From the NCBI RefSeq assembly GCF_041248615.1, contig NZ_CP158426.1: a stretch of DNA of 64,000 nucleotides; one strand, 5' to 3'. How positions within the stretch are numbered: the stretch's first letter is position 1; each line of letters opens with the position of its first letter. This document shows positions 2,306 through 57,303 of the stretch, piece after piece. A program made the position numbers and the translations under genes. The DNA comes from Escherichia coli. Its GTDB lineage: Bacteria > Pseudomonadota > Gammaproteobacteria > Enterobacterales > Enterobacteriaceae. Under the pieces are notes generated by a model. That model ran no database searches. It saw nothing but the letters and a program-made list of their open reading frames with translations, and was not told the DNA's origin.

Positions 2306-4582
2306 TTAATGCGCTGCTTCCGCCTTGTGCTTTTGTGCACTCTGGAATCCATAAGTCAGCTCATTTTTCTCTTTATCCAGCGCAACCGTCACCTGACCGC
2401 CGTCCACCAGCGAACCAAACAACAGTTCGTTGGCGAGCGGTTTTTTCAGGTTGTCCTGGATGACACGCGCCATCGGACGTGCGCCCATTGCCCGGTCGTA
2501 ACCTTTCTCGGCCAGCCAGTTACGCGCTTCCTGGCTCACTTCCAGAGAAACACCTTTCTGATCCAACTGAACCTGCAACTCGACGATGAATTTATCCACT
2601 ACCTGATGGATCACGTCGGTTGACAGATGATCGAACCAGATAATGTTGTCGAGACGGTTACGAAACTCCGGCGTAAAGATCTTCTTGATCTCTTCCATCG
2701 CATCGGTGCTGTTGTCCTGGTGGATAAGACCAATCGATTTACGCTCAGTTTCTCGTACCCCAGCGTTGGTGGTCATCACCAATACCACGTTACGGAAGTC
2801 CGCTTTGCGTCCGTTGTTATCGGTCAGCGTACCGTTGTCCATCACCTGCAACAGAATATTGAACACGTCCGGGTGCGCTTTCTCGATTTCGTCCAGCAGC
2901 AGCACCGCATGTGGATGCTTGATGACCGCATCAGTCAGCAAACCGCCCTGATCAAAACCAACGTATCCCGGAGGCGCACCAATCAGACGGCTGACGGTAT
3001 GGCGTTCCATATACTCGGACATATCAAAGCGCAGAAGCTCAATGCCCAAAGCTTTCGAAAGCTGTACCGTCACCTCTGTTTTCCCGACCCCGGTAGGGCC
3101 GGCAAACAGGAACGAACCGACCGGTTTATGTTCGTGACCTAAACCTGCACGCGCCATCTTAATGGCTTCAGTCAGCGCCTCGATGGCTTTATCCTGACCG
3201 AAGACCAGCATTTTCAGGCGATCGCCGAGGTTTTTCAGGGTATCGCGGTCACTCTGAGAAACACTCTTCTCTGGAATGCGCGCAATACGGGCCACCACGG
3301 ACTCAATATCCGCCACATTAACGGTTTTCTTGCGTTTGCTTACCGGCATCAGGCGTGCGCGAGCGCCCGCTTCGTCGATAACGTCAATGGCTTTATCCGG
3401 CAGATGACGATCGTTAATGTATTTCACCGCCAGCTCTACCGCTGCACGCACCGCTTTTGCGGTATAACGCACGTCGTGGTGCGCTTCATACTTCGGTTTC
3501 AGGCCATTGATGATTTGAACAGTTTCTTCGATCGACGGTTCAGTAATATCAATTTTCTGGAAGCGACGCGCCAGAGCACGGTCTTTCTCGAAAATGTTGC
3601 TGAACTCCTGATAGGTTGTCGAACCAATTACGCGAATTTTACCGCTGGAGAGCAACGGTTTGATTAGGTTAGCCGCATCGACCTGACCACCAGACGCTGC
3701 ACCCGCACCGATAATGGTGTGGATCTCATCAATAAACAGGATGCTGTTAGTGTCCTGCTCCAGCTGCTTGAGCAACGCTTTAAAACGTTTTTCAAAGTCG
3801 CCGCGATATTTTGTGCCCGCTAACAGAGAACCGATATCGAGAGAGTAAATCGTACAGTCAGCCATCACTTCCGGCACATCGCCCTGAACAATTCGCCAGG
3901 CAAGACCTTCTGCAATCGCGGTTTTACCGACACCAGATTCCCCCACCAGCAGCGGGTTGTTTTTACGGCGACGGCAGAGAACCTGAATAGCACGCTCCAG
4001 CTCCTTCTCACGACCAATCAGTGGGTCGATTCCGCCCACGCGCGCAAGCTGATTCAGGTTCGTCGTGAAATTCTCCATACGTTCCTCCCCACCAGCTTGT
4101 TCTTCGCTGTTTGGCTGGCTGCCAGGATCAGAAGACTGTGTCGGCTCGTCTTTACGCGTGCCATGAGAGATAAAGTTCACCACATCGAGACGGCTGACTT
4201 CATGTTTACGCAACAGATATGCCGCCTGCGACTCCTGTTCGCTAAAGATAGCGACCAGAACGTTTGCACCGGTAACCTCATTGCGACCGGAGGACTGGAC
4301 ATGGAAGACCGCACGTTGCAGTACACGCTGAAAACTCAGCGTTGGCTGTGTGTCGCGCTCCTCTTCACTGGCAGGCAGAACGGGTGTGGTTTGTTCAATA
4401 AAGGCTTCCAGTTCCTGACGGAGCGCAACCAAATCCACAGAACACGCTTCCAGCGCCTCCCGGGCAGATGGGTTACTGAGCAGCGCCAGTAACAAGTGCT
4501 CGACGGTCATAAACTCATGACGGTGCTCGCGCGCTCTGGCGAAAGCCATATTTAAACTGAGTTCCAGTTCTTGATTGAGCAT
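2306..4582 (-). CDS. clpA: ATP-dependent Clp protease ATP-binding subunit ClpA
   Basis: ORF 2306-4597; start placed at [24 protein letters not shown] (recalled ClpA N-terminus); two AAA+ modules with Walker motifs. Confidence 0.95.
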
Positions 4583-4612
4583 AGGCACCTCCCCCAATTT
4601 TTATGCCTGCAT

Positions 4613-4933
4613 TCAGGCTTTTTCTAGCGTACACAGCAATGGATGCTCATTCTCCCTCGCGTACTTGTTCACCATCGCCACTTTGGTTTCTGCAACCTCG
4701 GCGGTAAAGACTCCGCAAATGGCCTTCCCCTGGTAGTGAACAGCGAGCATCAATTGCGTTGCACGTTCTACATCATAAGAAAAGAATTTTTGTAACACGT
4801 CAATAACAAACTCCATCGGAGTGTAATCATCATTGACTAATATCACTTTATACATAGATGGCGGTTTTAGCGCGTCGCGAACTTTTTCTTCCGCCAGTTG
4901 ATCAAAGTCCAGCCAGTCGTTCGTTTTACCCAT
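4613..4933 (-). CDS. clpS: ClpS adaptor protein
   Basis: 106-aa [46 protein letters not shown]... directly upstream of clpA. Confidence 0.95.
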
Positions 4934-5255
4934 TGTCAGTTATCATCTTCGGTTACGGTTATCGGCAGAACGCCCTGCCGCTGACAAGAGCTTATTTGCC
5001 TGACCAATCTACTCCACATGATAGATAACTATCATCTATCGTTGGCATCAGCGACATCTGTCACATTCCTGTCAATAGCGTTAACTGCTTCAAATTTTTG
5101 ATTCATACCTGCCCCCTGGCCCCTGTCAAATGCTTGACGGCTCGCCCTAATTCTCTAAATTGTATTTCTAGAGTTGGCGAGGTTTTGAACAGCCCCCTCT
5201 CTGACCCCGGTTTATTCCATCTTACTTGTATAAGATTTGCGAAGGATGTCGAAGC

Positions 5256-5480
5256 ATGGAAAAGGGTACTGTTAAGTGGTTCAACAATGCCAAAGGGTTT
5301 GGTTTCATCTGCCCTGAAGGCGGCGGCGAAGATATTTTCGCTCATTATTCCACCATTCAGATGGATGGTTACAGAACGCTAAAAGCTGGACAATCCGTTC
5401 AGTTTGATGTCCACCAGGGGCCAAAAGGCAATCACGCCAGTGTTATTGTGCCCGTCGAAGTAGAAGCGGCAGTCGCATAG
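5256..5480 (+). CDS. cspD: Cold-shock-domain protein CspD
   Basis: MEKGTVKWFNNAKGFGFICPEGGGEDIFAHYS... 74 aa from the internal Met of ORF 5226-5480. Confidence 0.93.
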   Translation: MEKGTVKWFNNAKGFGFICPEGGGEDIFAHYSTIQMDGYRTLKAGQSVQFDVHQGPKGNHASVIVPVEVEAAVA

Positions 5481-5552
5481 CTCTTCTGTCTCATTGTGTA
5501 CATCCTAAAGGCAAAATGCCAGCCCGATCGGCTGGCATTTTTATCTCAAAAA

Positions 5553-7499
5553 TTACTCTCGTGCCAGAGCATCTACTGGATCCAGTCGTGCCGCATTTCG
5601 TGCGGGTAACCAGCCAAATAAAATCCCGGTGACCGTCGAGCAGAGAAACGCCAGCAGCAGCGCCAACGGTGAAAAACCAATCTCCCAGCCGGGTAAGAAA
5701 AGCTGTAAGGTGAAAGCAATTAACAGTGACAGTGTTATTCCCAACGCGCCACCGACCAGGCAAACCAGTACGGCTTCGATCAGAAACTGTTGCAACACAT
5801 CACTTGCTCGCGCACCTACAGCCATGCGAATGCCAATTTCCCGCGTCCGCTCGGTCACTGACACCAGCATAATATTCATTACACCAATACCGCCCACCAC
5901 TAGCGAAATCACCGCCACCAGCGTCAGAAACAGTTGTAAAGTACGTGTGGTCTTTTCAACGGTTTTCAAGACGCCGTCCATGTTCCAGGTAAAGAAATCC
6001 TTCTTACCGTGGCGCAGTGAAAGTAAACGCGTGAGTTGCTGTTCCGCCTCGGCGCTGTCAAATCCTTCTTTCACCCTGACAGTAATGGAGTTCAGCCACG
6101 ACTGGCCCATAACTCGCCCGGACATCGTGCTGTAAGGTAGCCAGACACGCAGCACTTTACTGCTACCAAACATCGACTGTTTTTCTTCCGCCACACCAAT
6201 GACTCTGGCGGGCATATTGCCGACCAGAATCACCTCGCCAACCACATCTGCTTTATGGGGGAAAAGCTGGCGGCGAGTATTACTGTCGAGCACCACCACC
6301 TGCGCACGACCGTTCAGCTGCTCCTGATTAAAGGTGTTCCCTTCACTGAAGGTCATGCCATAGACATTAAAATAATCGCCGCTCACGCCATTGGCACTGG
6401 CAGCAACATCAACATTGTTATAACGCAGGCGCAGGTTTTGCGAGACGGCAGGTGTGGCTGAGGCGACCCACGGTTGTTTTTGGATGGCGATTAAGTCGTC
6501 GTACTTCAGCGCCTGCTGATATTGCGGATCGTCATCGCCAAAATCTTTCCCGGGATAGACATCAATAGTATTCGTACCAATAGAACGAATATCCGCCAGC
6601 ACCATTTGTTTGGCGGCGTCGCCCACCACGACAATTGAAACCACCGACGCAATACCGATAATAATCCCCAGCATGGTCAGTAAAGTACGCATTTTATTCG
6701 CTGCCAGCGCCCGCCATGCCATCGTCAGCGCTTCGTTAAAACCGCTGACAAATTGCCGCCAGCCAGAGGCCGTGTTGACAACAGGTTCCGTCCCGCCAGC
6801 AACATTCACTTTTTCAACGGCGGGAGGATTGCGCACAATTTCGCCGTCGCGAATTTCGATCACCCGCTCGGCCTGAGCAGCGACCTGCGGATCGTGGGTA
6901 ACGATAATCACCGTATGCCCGCGATCGCGCAGCTGATGCAGGATCGCCATCACCTCTTCGCCAGAATGGCTGTCCAGTGCGCCGGTTGGTTCATCGGCAA
7001 GAATTACCTGACCGCCGTTCATCAATGCCCGCGCGATGCTGACGCGCTGTTGCTGCCCCCCCGAAAGCTGTGCCGGGTAATACTCTGTACGGTCTTCCAG
7101 CCCCAGTCGTTGCAGTAACTCCTGGGCGCGAAGCAGCCGCTGTTTCCGCTCAAGACCGGCATAGACGGCGGGTACTTCAACGTTCTGCTCGGCGGTTAAA
7201 TGCGAAAGCAAATGGTAACGCTGGAAAATAAAGCCGAAGTGTTCGCGACGCAGTTGCGCCAGCGCATCGGCGTCCAGCGTGGCAACATCCTGACCGGCTA
7301 CGCGATAGGTGCCGCTGGTGGCCTTATCCAGGCAGCCGAGAATATTCATCAGGGTCGATTTACCGGAACCCGAAGCGCCGACAATCGCCACCATCTCACC
7401 AGCATAAATATCGAGGGTGATGCCCTTCAGCACCTCAACCTGCTCATCACCGGCAGGATAGCTGCGACGAATATCCTTTAATTCGAGCAAGGGCGTCAT
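5553..7499 (-). CDS. macB: Macrolide export ABC transporter ATP-binding/permease protein MacB
   Basis: 648-aa ORF with N-terminal ABC ATPase ([18 protein letters not shown]) and C-terminal FtsX-like permease. Confidence 0.95.
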
Positions 7500-42111: not shown

Positions 42112-42191
42112 GTTGCCTGAAATTTATGCCTTTTAAAATCATGATATTAGAAGCACTGTTTTTTAACGATGGCGACAAAATGGCGGCAGCG

Positions 42192-49480: not shown

Positions 49481-50047
49481 TCAGGGGGATTCATTGCTCT
49501 TATTTGCCGGAAATTTTCTATAAATGGTAGAAACGCCTACATCAAAAATCAGTGCAATACGCTGTCTTGATTCTCCGGCCTCGAGTAAACGTCCAATCTG
49601 TGCCCACTGTTCAGTGGTCAACTTAGGACGGCGTCCACCTACTCTGCCTTTAGCACGAGCTGCAGCCAGCCCTGCCCTGGTACGTTCAACTATCAGTTCG
49701 CGTTCCATTTCAGCCAGGGCACCCATGACATGAAAAAAGAAACGGCCCATTGGGGTACTGGTATCAATACTGTCAGTCAGGCTTCGGAAATTCACACCAC
49801 GCTGGCGCAACTCTTCTATCAGCGTAACAAGATGCCGCATACTGCGCCCCAACCTGTCCAGCTTCCAGACAACCAGCGTGTCTCCTGCCGATAGTGTCCT
49901 GAGCAGCTTTTTCAGCCCCGGTCTGTCGGACTTGGTGCCACTGATTTTATCCTCAAAAATCCGCTCACATCCCGCACAGTTCAGTGCATTGCGTTGCAAA
50001 TCGGTGTTCTGGTCATTTGTTGACACGCGTACATAGCCAATAAGCAT
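49481..50047 (-). CDS. Pin/Gin/Hin-family serine DNA invertase
   Basis: MLIGYVRVSTNDQNTDLQRNALNCAGCE...VWKLDRLGRSMRHL...; catalytic Ser in VRVSTNDQ; close to recalled e14 Pin and Mu Gin. Confidence 0.9.
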   Translation of the reverse strand: MLIGYVRVSTNDQNTDLQRNALNCAGCERIFEDKISGTKSDRPGLKKLLRTLSAGDTLVVWKLDRLGRSMRHLVTLIEELRQRGVNFRSLTDSIDTSTPMGRFFFHVMGALAEMERELIVERTRAGLAAARAKGRVGGRRPKLTTEQWAQIGRLLEAGESRQRIALIFDVGVSTIYRKFPANKSNESP

Positions 50048-50102: not shown

Positions 50103-50128
50103 TTTTCTTAAACGTTGGTTTGGGAGAA
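50103..50128. other. Invertase crossover site (pix/gix-like), invertase-proximal
   Basis: TTTTCTTAAACG-TT-GGTTTGGGAGAA, two 12-bp half-sites around a 2-bp core, ~56 bp upstream of the invertase start; the GGTTTGGGAGAA half is identical to the site in H in inverted orientation. Confidence 0.7.
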
Positions 50129-50572
50129 GGTGCTCCAGCTATTGGTGTTCCGTTCTTCTGGCCGTCCGCTGCAATGCCAGATACCGTAATCGAAAGCTGG
50201 TCCGGCATGGTGTTTTTGAAGTTCAACGGCGCGAAATTCTCTGCCACTGATTACCCTGTGCTGGCGAAAGTGTTTCCTTCGCTGGTATTACCTGAAGCCC
50301 GCGGTGATTTCATTCGTATCTGGGATGACGGGCGAGGGGCGGACAGTGGACGAGCATTATTAAGCTGGCAGGCAGCAACATCTTTATCGCAATTTGGAGG
50401 TAATTATCCAGAGGGGTCCGGCCATTCGATTGCTAATCACGATGGAATATCAGCACACGAGCCGGGTTTCTCTCGATACCATTACACCAGTAATTCAGTG
50501 GGTGATGGTGTGAATTTTATAGCCGTCAGACCACGTAACATCGCATTTAACTTTCTGGTGAGGGCTAAATAA
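50129..50572 (+). CDS. Start-less alternative tail-fibre C-terminal segment (Sv'), expressed only after inversion
   Basis: Frame continues in phase from the crossover site; encodes GAPAIGVPFFWPS...LPEARGDFIRIWDDGRGADSGRALLSWQ..., a typical tail-fibre receptor-binding C-terminus. Confidence 0.7.
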   Translation, partial: GAPAIGVPFFWPSAAMPDTVIESWSGMVFLKFNGAKFSATDYPVLAKVFPSLVLPEARGDFIRIWDDGRGADSGRALLSWQAATSLSQFGGNYPEGSGHSIANHDGISAHEPGFSRYHYTSNSVGDGVNFIAVRPRNIAFNFLVRAK

Positions 50573-51165
50573 TGAAACCTGTTTTTGATAAAAATGGGCT
50601 GGCTACAGTGCCGGGCGATATGCGTTGTTTTTATTATGATGCTGAAACATCTGAGTATACGGGCTGGTCTGATGAATATATTAATACTGGCGTAAGTATG
50701 CCCGCCTGTTCCACTGGAATTGACCCTGGCGAAAACATTCCGGGAAGAGTGGCAGTATTTACAGGTAAGGGATGGAGCCATGAAGAAGACCATCGCAATG
50801 AGACTGTTTACTCAATCGAAAATGGTGCTGCTGTTACAGTGGATTATATCGGTGCCATCAAAAACGGTTATGTCACGCTTTCACCGTTAACGCCATATGA
50901 TAAATGGGATGGTAAGAAATGGGTGACAGATACTGAGGCACAACACGGTGCCGCAGTAGAAGCGGCAGAAGCACAGCGCCAGTCACTGATTGATGCAGCA
51001 ATGGCTTCCATTAGTCTGATTCAGCTGAAATTACAGGCCGGACGTAAACTGACGCAGGCAGAAACAACCAGACTTAACGCTGTGCTGGATTACATTGACG
51101 CGGTGACGGCAACAGATACCAGCACCGCGCCGGATGTCATCTGGCCTGAACTGCCGGAGGCGTAG
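50572..51165 (+). CDS. Tail fibre assembly protein, cognate to Sv'
   Basis: 197-aa ORF MKPVFDKNG... with Tfa-type C-terminus (AVLDYIDAVTATDTSTAPDVIWPELP). Confidence 0.8.
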   Translation: MKPVFDKNGLATVPGDMRCFYYDAETSEYTGWSDEYINTGVSMPACSTGIDPGENIPGRVAVFTGKGWSHEEDHRNETVYSIENGAAVTVDYIGAIKNGYVTLSPLTPYDKWDGKKWVTDTEAQHGAAVEAAEAQRQSLIDAAMASISLIQLKLQAGRKLTQAETTRLNAVLDYIDAVTATDTSTAPDVIWPELPEA

Positions 51166-51577
51166 GCCATTCAATATCTGGAGCACTGGAGGTATCAACC
51201 AGTTCCAGTGCGTCCAGATAATCCAGCCACAAATTATATTGCGCCAGTTCCTCACCTTTCAGACGACCAATAGCCGCTTTACCAGGCCATTGTTTACTGT
51301 TCATATAATCGTTGGCCTGATTAATCAATTGCTGCTTCTCCAATTCGGCTGCAGCAATTTGTTCCTCATGTGTTGGTGGTGGAATTTCAGACCATGCAGG
51401 AAAACCATTTTCTCCAGCGATACGGATTTTTCCTTTCGGCGGTAATCCGGAAAACTCAATATACACTTGCTCATCAACTTCAACAGCATCATCTGGCCAT
51501 GAGTCAGCTTGAGTGTAATCCTCTTTCATCTCCAGCGGATAGAAAGAGTTTGTAGTCGCGGAATATATGTAATTCAT
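51137..51577 (-). CDS. Tail fibre assembly protein, cognate to the currently expressed fibre tip
   Basis: 146-aa ORF with Tfa-type C-terminus (LWLDYLDALELVDTSSAPDIEWPTPP); converges on and overlaps the other tfa by 29 bp. Confidence 0.8.
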   Translation of the reverse strand: MNYIYSATTNSFYPLEMKEDYTQADSWPDDAVEVDEQVYIEFSGLPPKGKIRIAGENGFPAWSEIPPPTHEEQIAAAELEKQQLINQANDYMNSKQWPGKAAIGRLKGEELAQYNLWLDYLDALELVDTSSAPDIEWPTPPAVQAR

Positions 51578-51598
51578 TTTTCACTCCATATAGCTAAA

Positions 51599-52999
51599 TT
51601 AACAGCCTAACGCTAAAAATGAAGCGCCGAGGCCAGGAGTACTGGCTCTGGATATAAATTTAACCGGGTCGGGACTAAAACCTGCACAGGCAATATAACC
51701 AACAGCCCCGCTATCTGGTGTGTAGTCTTGTGAGACCAAAACACGCAGACATCTGTTTGGAAATGCAATCGGGAAATGGGTTACTACATCCTGTGCAATG
51801 CCTGGTGCGCCGATTGAGCCCCACTGAAGAATAAAACCTGATGGTAATTTTTGATATCCAGTACCTGAAACAGAAAGCGTGAAGCTACCCATATCAGGTA
51901 TCTGATTCGCCCCTGTCCCTACATTCCTTTTAGCCGCTTCTCCCAAACCAAGGTATGTGAGAAGACCAGCTACATCCTTTCCACTCAAATTGGTAAGCGT
52001 ATTGTCCAGCGGTTGTTTACCTGACAGCGCATTAAGCATTGTCGTGGCAAAGTTCGGATCATTCCCCAGCGCCGCTGCCAGTTCGTTCAGCGTATCCAGT
52101 GCCGCAGGTGCAGAACCCACCATTGCTGCAATCGCCGATTTCACAAAAGCCGTGGTGGCAATCTGTGTATTGTTGACCGACTGTGCCGCAGTAGGTGCTG
52201 TTGGCGTTCCGGTAAGTGCCGGACTCGACAGTGGCGCTTTTAGTTCCAGCGCATTGTTAATGGTGGTGCTGAATTTGGGGTCATTGTTTATGGCCGCGGC
52301 TATTTCTTTCAGCGTGTCCAGCGTGGCTGGCGCACCATTAATAAGAGCCGTCAGTGCCGCCTGAACAAACGCGGTGGTCGCAAGTTGCGTGGTATTATTC
52401 CCCGCCGCTGGCGTTGGTGCTTTGGGGGTTCCGGTAAACGTCGGGCTGGCTTTTGGCGCGTACTGTGAATGCGGGTCCAGTGCGGCAAGATGTTTTGCCA
52501 TCAGATCATCCGCGTACACCTTCAGCTCCAGTGCCTTGTCATCCACATACTTGCGGGTTGCCAGCACTACAGCAGGGTCGATTTTCAGGGTGATATTGTC
52601 CGTGCTGCTGGTAATCAGCACCATGCGCACGGTCTGAGTGCGCCCGCTACCTTCAGCCAGTTGCGGCTTATAGCTTTCCGGGCAGTTGCCCACGGCAATC
52701 AATGCCCCTGACTCATCAAACAAGCCCACTTCACGTATCCACCAACCGCCCTCGTTTTCAGGGATCACCTGTTCGGCAATAATCTGACTGCTGTTCTGCG
52801 GGTCGATATAGAGCATATTCAGCGCAGCCCGGCGTTTCTCATTTACCAGTGCAGTCTGCTTTGAGTCTGGCGTTGGCAATGCTCCGCCGCCATCGCCCAC
52901 CGCCATATGGGTAATTTTTAGCGGCACACCGAGCGCGGCGGCGCTGGCAAGTTTCGCCGCGCCAATATCCGTCAGCAGGGTATAAAATTTTGTGCTCAT
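51599..52999 (-). CDS. Tail fibre protein (P2 gpH-like), constant N-terminus fused in current orientation to variable tip Sv
   Basis: 466-aa ORF; crossover site lies in-frame at codons ~346-354 (YLGLGE). Confidence 0.85.
51938..51963. other. Invertase crossover site (pix/gix-like) inside the tail fibre gene
   Basis: TTCTCCCAAACC-AA-GGTATGTGAGAA on + strand; shares 14/14 TTCTCCCAAACCAA with the reverse complement of the site at 50103-50128. Confidence 0.7.
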
Positions 53000-54502: not shown

Positions 54503-54848
54503 TCTCTGCTCCTGTTGATACGGAAAGGGAAACAGGCACACCGTTATTACGCCGCCCGCTCAGCGCCACCACCATTGAACCGTCAAAATTGCTGTTGATG
54601 GTGATGGAATCCAGCGTCATCCGTGGCTCCCAGCGACTCAGTGCCACATACACAGCCGACATGACCTGCAGGCGTAACGCCGGATTTTGTGGCTGATCTA
54701 TTAAAGCCGACAGCAGGGAACCATATTCCCGGCGGGCAATGCGGCTACCCTGCGGTGTCAGCAGAATGTCCCGCACCGACTGGCGCAGATGGTCAATATC
54801 AGTAATAGCTTTACCGCTGGTATTGTTCATCCCGATATAAAGCGTCAT
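54489..54848 (-). CDS. Baseplate protein (P2 gpW-like)
   Basis: 119-aa ORF between V and J. Confidence 0.8.
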   Translation of the reverse strand: MTLYIGMNNTSGKAITDIDHLRQSVRDILLTPQGSRIARREYGSLLSALIDQPQNPALRLQVMSAVYVALSRWEPRMTLDSITINSNFDGSMVVALSGRRNNGVPVSLSVSTGAENGSD

Positions 54849-55423
54849 ACCGGGCCTCCGGTTGTGTCGCCGCCTTTCAGGACGCCAGTATGCTGATGCG
54901 CATCAACCACGATCCCGTTAGAACTCATTGCACCGCCACCCTGGGTAACGCCACCATTGATCACCACTTCGCTGTTAATACGCGTGCGGTCAGCCTCCAG
55001 CACAAACTCACTGGTTTTCAGGGTGATGTTGTCGGCAGCCTCAATGACCATGGATTTGATGCCCCTGACATACCAGCGCCCGGTGGCGGGTTCGTATTCA
55101 AACCAGCCACCATCAGGATGTTCTGTCACGCAGGCTTCCGCCGACGTTGACGGCGGTGCGAACTGATTCGAATAGATGGCGGGCAACGCAAAGGCGGTTT
55201 CCAGATTGCCACCCAGGCTGAACAGCACAACCTGCTCGCCCACAGACGGTTTCCACCAGGTGCGCGATTTGCCCGCGCGCAGTGTCAGCCAGTTAATCCA
55301 GTTGGTTTCAAGGTCGCCCGTTTTCACCCGGCAAAGCCAGTTCTCCCGGTCCACCTCGGTGACTACACCAGTGCGGATCAGGTTGGTGATAAGGCGCATG
55401 ATTTCAGTCAGTTGTGCATTCAT
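54845..55423 (-). CDS. Baseplate spike protein (P2 gpV-like)
   Basis: ORF 54845-55501; start placed at MNAQLTEIMRLITNLIRTGVV by similarity to recalled P2 V. Confidence 0.8.
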   Translation of the reverse strand: MNAQLTEIMRLITNLIRTGVVTEVDRENWLCRVKTGDLETNWINWLTLRAGKSRTWWKPSVGEQVVLFSLGGNLETAFALPAIYSNQFAPPSTSAEACVTEHPDGGWFEYEPATGRWYVRGIKSMVIEAADNITLKTSEFVLEADRTRINSEVVINGGVTQGGGAMSSNGIVVDAHQHTGVLKGGDTTGGPV

Positions 55424-55471
55424 GAGAGCGATCCTTGCACAACCGGGTAGAGTGATGTAATACAGAGCGTA

Positions 55472-55489
55472 TGTATGGAGAACCACACA
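55472..55489. promoter_or_regulatory. Candidate Ogr-dependent late promoter element (TGT-N12-ACA) upstream of V
   Basis: TGTATGGAGAACCACACAA, ~55 bp upstream of the V start. Confidence 0.5.
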
Positions 55490-55518
55490 AAAGAGAAACA
55501 ATTTCTAAGGTATTTAAG

Positions 55519-56385
55519 ATGACACAAATCGCAATTTATGGATTTAATTTCACTAAAAAAATCACATTTGACGGTGGTGAGTTAACTCCTATTTTCAGTT
55601 CATGGAGTGAGTTAAAAAAAAATGGCTGGGCTAATGATAGGTACATCCTCACTGGTTTTTTCAAACCAAACTCGAATAACTACGCCACTCAACAGCAGCT
55701 TATTTTTGATTTACAAGCAGTTCTTAGTTTTATTGAACAAAAAAATGTAATCATTTCAGGAGAACTTGAAAATGATGAAACCCCTTTCAATTTCAAACCA
55801 TCTCTACCCAAAAAGCTTGACAAAAAAAGAGATAAGGGTGCGGGCATTATCATCATGGAAGATTATTTTGCACCAAACAGCCGAGAAAATTTTATTTGCT
55901 TAGCCATGGAAAAACTAAATAGTAAAGCCATGCTAAAACAAGATGCCTTTAGAACATCATTTTTTAAATCAATGCTAGCTTTCCGCGACTCAATAAATTA
56001 TATCGACGTCAGATATTATTTATTATTCTCGGCACTAGAAGCACTTTGCAGATTTATTAAAAATGACTACTCCCCTGCCAAAACACCACAAATAATCACT
56101 CAGGTTTTAAAAGAATATGGTTTTAATGTCGAAAAAACAGGACATACATTAGCTCAAAGAAACATTATGCATTACTGCAAACTCCGTCACTCGCTGTTCC
56201 ACAATGGTAAATACATTGCCTATCTTGATGAAAAAAACTCAGATGGCAAAATTGAAATTCAAGATTACTCATCAAATTTGAATTTACTGGTGCCACTTGT
56301 ACTAATGAAATTCATAGGATTTGATGACAATTATATAAACTGGGACTCATGGATTGATAGGAATCCATTTATCAGTAAAAAGTAA
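55519..56385 (+). CDS. AT-rich hypothetical cargo protein (~288 aa) between tail genes V and S; function unknown, candidate accessory/defence gene
   Basis: ATG at 55519 (ORF frame opens at 55471); visibly AT-rich and Lys/Asn/Ile/Phe-rich; opposite strand to all flanking late genes; no P2 counterpart at this position; C-terminal R-x4-H motif (RHSLFH). Confidence 0.7.
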   Translation: MTQIAIYGFNFTKKITFDGGELTPIFSSWSELKKNGWANDRYILTGFFKPNSNNYATQQQLIFDLQAVLSFIEQKNVIISGELENDETPFNFKPSLPKKLDKKRDKGAGIIIMEDYFAPNSRENFICLAMEKLNSKAMLKQDAFRTSFFKSMLAFRDSINYIDVRYYLLFSALEALCRFIKNDYSPAKTPQIITQVLKEYGFNVEKTGHTLAQRNIMHYCKLRHSLFHNGKYIAYLDEKNSDGKIEIQDYSSNLNLLVPLVLMKFIGFDDNYINWDSWIDRNPFISKK

Positions 56386-56411
56386 ACTAAATTTTATAAA
56401 TGTGGTTTTAT

Positions 56412-56858
56412 TTATCTCTGTAACCAATTTAGCAAAGCATCCTGAATGACAGTTTCCACATCATCATTTACGCCTAGGAGACGACGCTCTGCGTAACGGA
56501 CCTCCGGTCCTCTTCGACTGATGCGATCACGCAGGCCGTAGTGATGAACGCGGGCAATGCGCTGCACCTGACCTTCAAACTGCACGCTGGCAGAATCGGC
56601 GCTGGCGGCAGTTTTCAGGTATTTTGTGGTGCGCAGCTTTGTAAACATCTGACGTTTGATGCGCCCCTTTTTGCTGCGTGCTGTTACCCGTCGCGGCTCA
56701 TAACTGCTGCCATCTGGATTGCGCTGCATCCTGATGTTCTGCTGCTGTGTCCGGCGCAGTTCCTGCGCCAGCTGGCGCATCATGCGACTTCTCGTGGCTG
56801 GTTCCAGATTCGCCAGCAAGGCACTCAACCAGTCGTCCACCTTCTGCAGTTCAGCCAC
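56412..56858 (-). CDS. Tail completion protein (P2 gpS-like)
   Basis: 148-aa ORF MAELQKVDDWLSALLANLEPATRSRMMRQLAQELRR... Confidence 0.8.
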   Translation of the reverse strand: MAELQKVDDWLSALLANLEPATRSRMMRQLAQELRRTQQQNIRMQRNPDGSSYEPRRVTARSKKGRIKRQMFTKLRTTKYLKTAASADSASVQFEGQVQRIARVHHYGLRDRISRRGPEVRYAERRLLGVNDDVETVIQDALLNWLQR

Positions 56859-57303
56859 GTTTCACCGTCCACATTTCTTCAGGTTCATCGGGTTCTGCTA
56901 CAGCTTCAACGCTCGACACACTGCCGTCAGTGCTGACCAGCACACGCTCCGTCAGTTGCAGGTTCAGGCTGATATCACAGACATCGTTGCGCAGAATATC
57001 CACCTCAAAGGTGAATAGTTTTTCCCGTAACGCCGGGTTATTGATGGCATCGGGCTGGTTATCCCTCAGCCACAGCAAAACCGGGGCCATCAGCAGATTC
57101 TGGTCGCCGCTGAAATCCTCAATCACCGCGTTCAGGGTGTAACGGTACTCCCACGACATGGAGCTGGCCCCCGTAGCAACCAGCGAACCGTTATCCACAA
57201 ACAGATGCAGTTTGTCCGGGTTATTGCGGACATAAGGCACCGCTTTATTGAGGGCGTGGCGCAGGGATTGTGGTTTGTTCACTGTTTCGCTCCTGACACG
57301 CAA
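56851..57303 (-). CDS. Tail completion protein (P2 gpR-like)
   Basis: 150-aa ORF overlapping S by 8 bp. Confidence 0.8.
   Translation of the reverse strand: MRVRSETVNKPQSLRHALNKAVPYVRNNPDKLHLFVDNGSLVATGASSMSWEYRYTLNAVIEDFSGDQNLLMAPVLLWLRDNQPDAINNPALREKLFTFEVDILRNDVCDISLNLQLTERVLVSTDGSVSSVEAVAEPDEPEEMWTVKRG

Follow-up and report, generated by a model that had tools for sequence, protein, structure and literature searches.

An AT-rich accessory gene between tail genes S and V of a P2-like Escherichia coli prophage encodes a HEPN-like protein that may act in anti-phage defense

An AT-rich gene lying between tail genes V and S of a P2-like prophage, on the strand opposite to both, raises the question of what it encodes and whether it may act in defense against other phages. 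The gene, hereafter the cargo gene, is located in a 64,000-nucleotide stretch of Escherichia coli contig NZ_CP158426.1 (assembly GCF_041248615.1), which was analyzed over its full length and is referred to as the window. From about position 42190 to its end, the window is the late region of a P2/186-like prophage whose insertion adjoins ybjL, and, except for one inverted tail-fiber segment, the window as a whole matches the chromosome of E. coli NRZ14408 (NZ_LT599825.1) at 100% identity. The product of the cargo gene is identical to WP_001579974.1, named “hypothetical protein” by PGAP in the annotation of the identical E. coli genome. The reading that we favor, at a little better than even confidence, is that this product is a single-protein HEPN RNase acting in abortive infection or anti-phage defense, carried as an accessory cassette at the S-V junction, which is the orf30 site of P2.

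The open reading frame (ORF) of 288 amino acids (aa) is a real gene and not a product of chance. The longest stop-free run at the locus extends over 309 codons, whereas 2000 shuffled sequences gave 70 on average and at most 154, and the probability of meeting no stop over 288 codons at the composition of the gene is about 2e-10. Homologues of the protein were found with an E-value (E) of 1e-100 or better. Relative to a Klebsiella allele, the proportion of nonsynonymous differences (pN, 0.28) is far below that of synonymous differences (pS, 0.74), which indicates that the gene is under purifying selection. An in-frame ATG upstream, at 55471, would give an alternative form of 304 aa; the 288-aa start was preferred because the phage protein profile phrog_4373 aligns from residue 1 and the homologues share the same methionine. 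That profile, annotated as “unknown function,” matches the protein at full length (profile positions 1–283 of 283, E 2e-142) and is its sole database match. GC content along the ORF is 0.32–0.35 versus 0.54–0.60 in the flanks, with 0.332 for the whole gene and 0.31 at third codon positions. An earlier note, made from the sequence alone, had described a 288-aa AT-rich frame on the strand opposite to V and S that starts about 30 base pairs (bp) from the V promoter dyad, and all of these points hold (29 bp; GC 0.33). A putative antisense ORF of 55 aa (55689–55856, minus strand) lies within the cargo gene.

An AlphaFold model built on the family alignment (single chain; predicted local distance difference test score 89.9, predicted template modeling score 0.89) resolves two domains. 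The N-terminal alpha/beta domain is proposed to be a sensor or regulatory domain. The helical C-terminal half matches the structures of HEPN toxins, Csm6, AbiA, and AbiV, with Las1, Cas13h, and LsoA ranked lower, and the solved folds closest to the model are the HepT toxins of HEPN-MNT toxin-antitoxin systems (5YEP, 7AE-series). The hallmarks of HEPN domains are an Rx4-6H motif at the end of helix 3, a polar residue (N, D, or H) after the arginine, and an upstream E-x3-[KR] motif (Anantharaman et al., 2013, PMC3710099). The modeled C-terminal half is a four-helix up-down bundle, and the sequence KLRHSLFHNG (residues 221–230) places R223 (nt 56185–56187) and H228 (nt 56200–56202) at the end of helix 3, with E174-x3-R178 upstream and a beta-hairpin (233–246) inserted after the catalytic helix. 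The residue following R223 is polar, being H224 here and N in the family consensus RNALFH. Among the 39 closer members of the family, R223, L226, F227, H228, E174, R178, and D163 are invariant; among 52 diverse members, H228 is the only invariant column, and R223, E174, F227, and W278 are conserved in at least 90%. No polar residues other than those of the Rx4H and Ex3R motifs are conserved throughout the family. The model and the conservation support a HEPN-like C-terminal domain with an intact predicted metal-independent RNase site (E174-x3-R178 and R223-x4-H228). The R-x4-H motif, picked out in the earlier note as one of the HEPN kind, thus falls within a helical HEPN-like fold, at the end of helix 3.

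The site itself is informative. The earlier note took P2 to have only the late promoter between S and V, and this premise does not hold: exactly there, on the opposite strand, lies the non-essential Orf30 (261 aa) of P2, whose start adjoins the activator site of the V promoter. Nor is the location unusual, since orf30 is a published variable locus. In P2-like phages, genes that P2 lacks are commonly found at three loci, namely the TO and Z/fun regions and orf30, and are presumed to be horizontally acquired (PMC3091744). The cargo gene belongs to the same positional class as orf30, lying between S and V, opposite to the late operons, AT-rich, and dispensable, with its start likewise adjoining the V promoter activator site. 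Homology of its product to P2 Orf30 (NP_046770) was rejected (BLASTP E 32).

Alternative cargo at this junction was sought in 240 IMG/VR loci of P2-like contigs, fetched with three S proteins at 80 loci each. With the S protein of the window, the closest 80 loci comprised 75 empty junctions, one cut before V, two with this gene (one of them at a contig end), one with a split homologue, and one with an unrelated 231-aa membrane protein. The P2-type S retrieved 52 empty loci, 21 with Orf30, six with a 247–278-aa protein carrying the motif LRNILTHQ (split in two of the six), and one without V. For the S protein of the type of Salmonella phage RE-2010, 63 loci were empty, six carried the RE-2010-type homologue, one the Klebsiella-type homologue, two the 231-aa membrane protein, and eight other cargos. 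Every one of the “other” cargos that were extracted is AT-rich (GC 0.34–0.40) and opposite in strand to S and V. A complete Septu system occupies the S-V junction of locus L196 (about 3890–5956, opposite strand, GC 0.34), with PADLOC matches to PtuA (410 aa, E 1e-140) and PtuB (217 aa, E 5e-100), and locus L229 shows the same gap of 2005 bp. Two PADLOC candidate families were also found in S-V gaps: PDC-S31 (297 aa, DUF2971-like, E 1e-37) in L231, whose gap is matched in length by that of L242, and PDC-S15 (301 aa, FRG-like, E 6e-32) in L243. Among 5426 complete E. coli genomes, 23 have the whole element, and about 1000 match the V and S flanks only. On the basis of the junction survey, the PADLOC matches, and the genome counts, the S-V junction is demonstrably a polymorphic cargo site that hosts defense systems, and the alternative occupants that the earlier note had thought worth looking for are present. 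Its view of the gene as accessory and non-structural is likewise confirmed by the empty site of the closest relative (CP019275.1) and the 75 empty junctions among the 80 closest S-bearing viral contigs.

Several other occupants of the junction were noted in passing. The 247–278-aa AT-rich cargo of the P2-type phages (L107, L131, L144, and L157; split in L101 and L102) carries EDLRNILTHQ, which contains an R-x4-H motif, has no Pfam or PADLOC match, and from its sequence may be a second, unrelated HEPN-like cargo at this site. Locus L219 (about 3896–5815) encodes a 563-aa cargo with DLDAAYTLFVASIESLAQ and LRSKYVH, which resemble the helix and Rx4H motifs of the cargo family, and this protein also has no Pfam or PADLOC match. 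Its comparison with the family profile by hhalign gave no significant match (probability 0.9%), despite similar D..Y.L..S.E.LA and LRxxxxH motifs that align. Multi-pass membrane proteins form a further kind of alternative cargo, with 231 aa in L078 (3952–4647) and 174 and 147 aa in L218 and L221.

The boundaries of the cassette are visible by comparison with CP019275.1, the closest phage record, in which V and S are spaced by 68 bp with no cargo gene. In a blastn alignment, similarity stops at 55423, the V start codon, and restarts at 56455, with flanks 94–95% identical. No flanking direct repeats or att-like sites were found around the resulting 1031-bp segment (Table 1). With one boundary at the V start codon, the other 43 bp within S, and no such repeats or sites, the sequence suggests that the cassette arrived by recombinational exchange rather than by site-specific insertion. 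A search of 55000–57000 for Rfam RNAs and repeats, together with the ORFs of the cassette, yielded no second ORF, direct-repeat array, or Rfam RNA in it, and the cargo gene is a single-gene unit without a partner.

The dyad at 55472–55489 is the counterpart of a site in the P2 V promoter that is annotated as binding the activator (42–69 bp upstream of V in P2). It is kept in an alignment with four other P2-like phages including P2, along with a conserved TTGCACAA block. At the other end, the stop codons of the cargo gene and S are separated by only 26 bp with no hairpin terminator between them; the P2 annotation places a terminator between S and orf30. Because of this short gap without a hairpin, late R-S transcription would run antisense into the cargo gene, and we speculate that the cargo gene could be silenced in this way during the lytic growth of its own prophage.

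Table 1. Positions of the cargo gene, its encoded domains and motifs, and the surrounding features in the window.
Feature	Position	Strand	Comment
Baseplate assembly protein V (gene V)	54845–55423	-	Flank of cargo gene
Divergent intergenic region, 95 bp	55424–55518		V late promoter region, plus any promoter of the cargo gene
Variable segment, 1031 bp	55424–56454		Spans promoter region, cargo gene, and 43 bp at the 3′ end of S; 111 bp in closest empty-site phage
TGT-N12-ACA dyad TGTATGGAGAACCACACA	55472–55489		29 bp before cargo ATG
Cargo gene	55519–56385	+	ATG start, 288 aa, two-domain protein
N-terminal alpha/beta domain, residues 1 to about 105–118	55519–55872	+	AlphaFold model; fold family unassigned
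C-terminal helical HEPN-like domain, residues about 121–288	55879–56382	+	AlphaFold model
E-x3-[KR] motif E174-A-L-C-R178	56038–56052	+	In helix 162–181, upstream of Rx4H
Rx4H motif R223-H-S-L-F-H228	56185–56202	+	C-terminal end of helix 216–229
Tail completion/virion morphogenesis protein S (gene S)	56412–56858	-	Other flank of cargo gene

The protein belongs to a family of 78 clusters at 90% identity and about 144 at 50%, nearly all of 270–320 aa and aligning end to end. Its hosts include Salmonella, E. coli, Klebsiella, Citrobacter, Pantoea, Vibrio, Shewanella, Halomonas, Acinetobacter, and Nitrospina, as well as metagenomes, and the identical 288-aa protein occurs on at least 1000 contigs, mostly of Salmonella but also of E. 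coli and Citrobacter. Homologues at the same junction are found in Klebsiella phage ST437-OXA245phi4.1 (57% identity) and in RE-2010 (35%), whereas the flanking W, V, S, and R proteins are 73–82% and 83–94% identical, respectively; at this site, the cargo alleles have diverged far more quickly than the neighboring structural proteins. A further S-V homologue (L071, 3936–4948; 55–56% identity) is split into ORFs of 112 and 202 aa, by pseudogenization or by sequencing error.

Outside the P2-like phages, the settings are mobile in several cases. In Halomonas (L085, 4693–9939), a divergent IntI-like integrase (PF13495 and PF00589) has the homologue as its immediate neighbor, followed by small same-strand genes (cupin, DUF6998, acetyltransferases) with attC-like imperfect palindromes between them; judging by this arrangement, the homologue is probably an integron cassette in a chromosomal integron array. 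The Vibrio alginolyticus homologue shares an island with an integrase and a resolvase, that of Nitrospina lies between two integrases near an Eco57I-type methyltransferase, and that of Acinetobacter stands alone among housekeeping genes. No neighboring gene is conserved across these four contexts.

The earlier note presented the gene as undescribed, which is too strong for a family that already has a phage protein profile (phrog_4373) and whose homologues are labeled “Apea-like HEPN” in UniProt. The family is nevertheless uncharacterized and absent from defense databases, and PADLOC recognized neither the query nor ten distant members. Sequence searches of the PDB, with the single sequence and with a profile, returned only noise. 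A profile search of a 5.8-billion-protein set did not reach beyond the family of about 280 aa and found no bridge to ApeA. Searchable literature contained nothing on “Apea-like HEPN” beyond the ApeA preprint, and the family motifs were not found in the searchable text of the DefensePredictor supplements.

Among known systems, ApeA (Gao_Ape) offers the closest parallel. Both ApeA and the cargo protein are single-gene units without a partner, and in both, insertions follow helix 3 of the C-terminal HEPN domain, whose nearest solved neighbor is HepT (10.64898/2026.01.26.701840). A Foldseek search with the whole model retrieved proteins of 420–470 aa labeled “ApeA N-terminal domain” and “YopA central domain” (E about 1e-4, TM-score 0.5–0.58, about 300 aligned columns). 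ApeA forms decameric or dodecameric rings and cleaves tRNA anticodon loops, and one ApeA is activated by 5′-phosphorylated deoxydinucleotides (bioRxiv 10.64898/2026.01.26.701840). ApeA, however, has about 580 aa in three domains (helical N-terminal, PafA-like Mid, and HEPN) compared with 288 aa in two domains here (bioRxiv 10.64898/2026.01.26.701840). ApeA has its ligand pocket between HEPN and the helical N-terminal domain, and a counterpart of the latter was not identified in the cargo protein. Membership in ApeA was rejected on account of this much shorter architecture, the lack of a PADLOC ApeA match for the query and ten relatives, and HEPN_Apea matches in only two of 52 relatives at E 8e-3 at best. 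The cargo protein thus resembles ApeA as a solo HEPN protein like a miniature ApeA and is peripheral to ApeA at best.

Two further comparisons involve prophage accessory genes that encode HEPN proteins, as the cargo gene does, and both were made by description only. HepS, from the Gifsy-1 prophage of Salmonella, is a single protein that is produced constitutively in a latent state, is switched on by a structural (tail-tip) protein of the infecting phage, and cleaves tRNA anticodon loops (PMC13043305). It is set apart by its length of less than 250 aa, its motif R100-H105, the lack of an extra N-terminal domain, and its different locus in a lambdoid prophage. Tha, from Staphylococcus aureus prophages, is described as a HEPN-domain defense activated by tail proteins (PMC11087260). 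DARNA/PD-T7-3 is another HEPN tRNA anticodon nuclease.

Systems with a dedicated antitoxin fit less well. Compared with HepT of the type VII HEPN-MNT system HepT/MntA, the cargo protein has the extra N-terminal domain and the beta-hairpin insertion, and this assignment was rejected because no MNT nucleotidyltransferase gene is adjacent here or in the four distant contexts. A type III toxin-antitoxin or AbiF-like HEPN protein with an RNA antitoxin was rejected as well, on the basis that 55000–57000 contains no direct-repeat array and no Rfam match. RnlA/LsoA (RNase LS) gave weak structural scores, has a different length and domain number, and would call for an RnlB/LsoB-type antitoxin gene, which is lacking.

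Under the favored reading, we infer a course of events like that of the single-protein HEPN defenses ApeA, HepS, and DARNA, which are infection-activated tRNA anticodon nucleases and provide its precedent. The lysogen would make the protein in a latent form. By analogy with other HEPN enzymes, this would probably be a dimer or a larger oligomer with its composite active site kept in an inactive state. Infection by another phage would supply a trigger, for which either the N-terminal domain or the insertions in HEPN may serve as the sensor. Once active, the E174/R223/H228 site would cut cellular RNA, most likely tRNA anticodon loops as is the case for ApeA, HepS, DARNA, and PrrC, and the resulting stop in translation would abort the infection and protect sister lysogens and the prophage. 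This hypothesis of an anti-phage phenotype is strengthened by the known defense systems that occupy the same site in other phages.

Several observations weigh against this interpretation. A promoter scan found no sigma-70 consensus promoter upstream of the cargo gene, whose expression in the lysogen is thus presumed. PADLOC 2.0 (E ≤ 1) returned no match for the query or the ten distant family members, Pfam (E ≤ 10) and NCBIfam none for the query, and Pfam on 52 relatives only two HEPN_Apea (PF18739) matches at E ≤ 0.1, the best being 8e-3. No experimental test of the family was found in the searchable literature, using four accessions and the family motifs as queries. Most S-V cargos, such as P2 Orf30 and the membrane proteins, are of unknown function, and Orf30 has no PADLOC match, so that guilt by location is imperfect. 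Moreover, some HEPN domains are non-catalytic or ligand-binding.

One rival explanation is that the gene is a selfish, addiction-type toxin element, in which the HEPN RNase stabilizes the prophage or cassette, for instance by killing cells that lose it or by arresting growth under stress, with no specific anti-phage role. The kinship of the fold to the HepT toxins and the AT-rich, mobile nature of the gene are in keeping with such an element, as is the probable integron cassette among the homologues, given that toxin-antitoxin systems are the commonest “defense” class in that setting. A toxin without an antidote cannot mediate addiction, however, and the 1031-bp cassette has no antitoxin gene, repeat-RNA antitoxin, or Rfam RNA, nor does any of these lie beside the distant homologues. 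The identical protein is also intact on at least 1000 contigs, and we consider this explanation unlikely.

The RNase could instead benefit the phage, by acting in its own lytic cycle, in counter-defense (for example by degrading cyclic-oligoadenylate signals or host RNAs), or in the exclusion of P4-type satellites. Some HEPN enzymes do degrade cyclic oligoadenylates, and late co-activation is conceivable for a gene whose start lies 29 bp from the late V promoter's Ogr-type activator dyad. Yet the gene is absent from most near-identical phages and therefore dispensable, and, like Orf30 and the lysogenic-conversion genes of P2, it runs opposite to both late operons. In addition, homologues occur outside any phage, in the integron-type locus, in islands, and as a solo chromosomal gene. 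A role of this kind accordingly appears improbable to us.

A third alternative, in which the HEPN-like domain is inactive or ligand-binding with a regulator or adaptor role, or the gene is silent cargo, is one to which we give very little credence. AT-rich foreign genes are often silenced by H-NS, and the missing promoter and the split same-site homologue (L071) would suit silent cargo. Some HEPN families have indeed lost catalysis, but non-catalytic families typically lose Rx4-6H (PMC3710099), whereas the residues conserved across the roughly 144 clusters of this family are exactly the catalytic R, H, and E-x3-R, and pN is far below pS.

An extension of the favored reading goes considerably further and is, in our judgment, possible but doubtful. 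On this view, the family of about 280 aa would be an anti-phage system of a new, single-gene kind: a minimal nuclease of the form “TBP-like sensor + Apea-type HEPN,” in which the small N-terminal domain would recognize a trigger that comes from the phage and is unlike those of ApeA, HepS, and DARNA. The S-V junction would then be a general defense hotspot of Peduoviridae, and late antisense read-through from R-S would switch the defense off in the lytic cycle of the prophage itself.

Elsewhere in the prophage, the inverted tail-fiber segment that distinguishes the window from E. coli NRZ14408 spans 50115–51954 and adjoins a recombinase/invertase gene at about 49481–50047. Given this neighbor, the segment looks like a Gin/Cin-type invertible host-range switch in the other orientation. 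An H-like tail-fiber ORF (51599–52999, 466 aa) is intact in the window, at a place where the NRZ14408 annotation has truncated “tail protein” and “integrase” pseudogenes. Past the right end of the window, the A-Q hotspot of the same prophage in NRZ14408 (L091, 29534–32943) holds a RES-family NAD+ phosphorylase and a P-loop NTPase, and on this account the prophage probably carries cargo at two hotspots.

The general picture is unchanged by these results, as prophage hotspots with HEPN abortive-infection genes are already well established. Septu, PDC-S31, and PDC-S15, all found in the survey at the orf30 locus of P2-like phages, are direct evidence of a defense-type cargo site, and therefore the unannotated occupants of this locus, namely P2 Orf30, the 247–278-aa and 563-aa Rx4H proteins, and the small membrane proteins, become candidates. 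If the favored reading is true, the cargo gene would encode a very compact solo-HEPN defense protein that is widespread in P2-like prophages of Salmonella, E. coli, and Klebsiella and has been missed by PADLOC, Pfam, and NCBIfam. With only 288 aa and two domains, it would offer a tractable system for the latency and activation of HEPN RNases.

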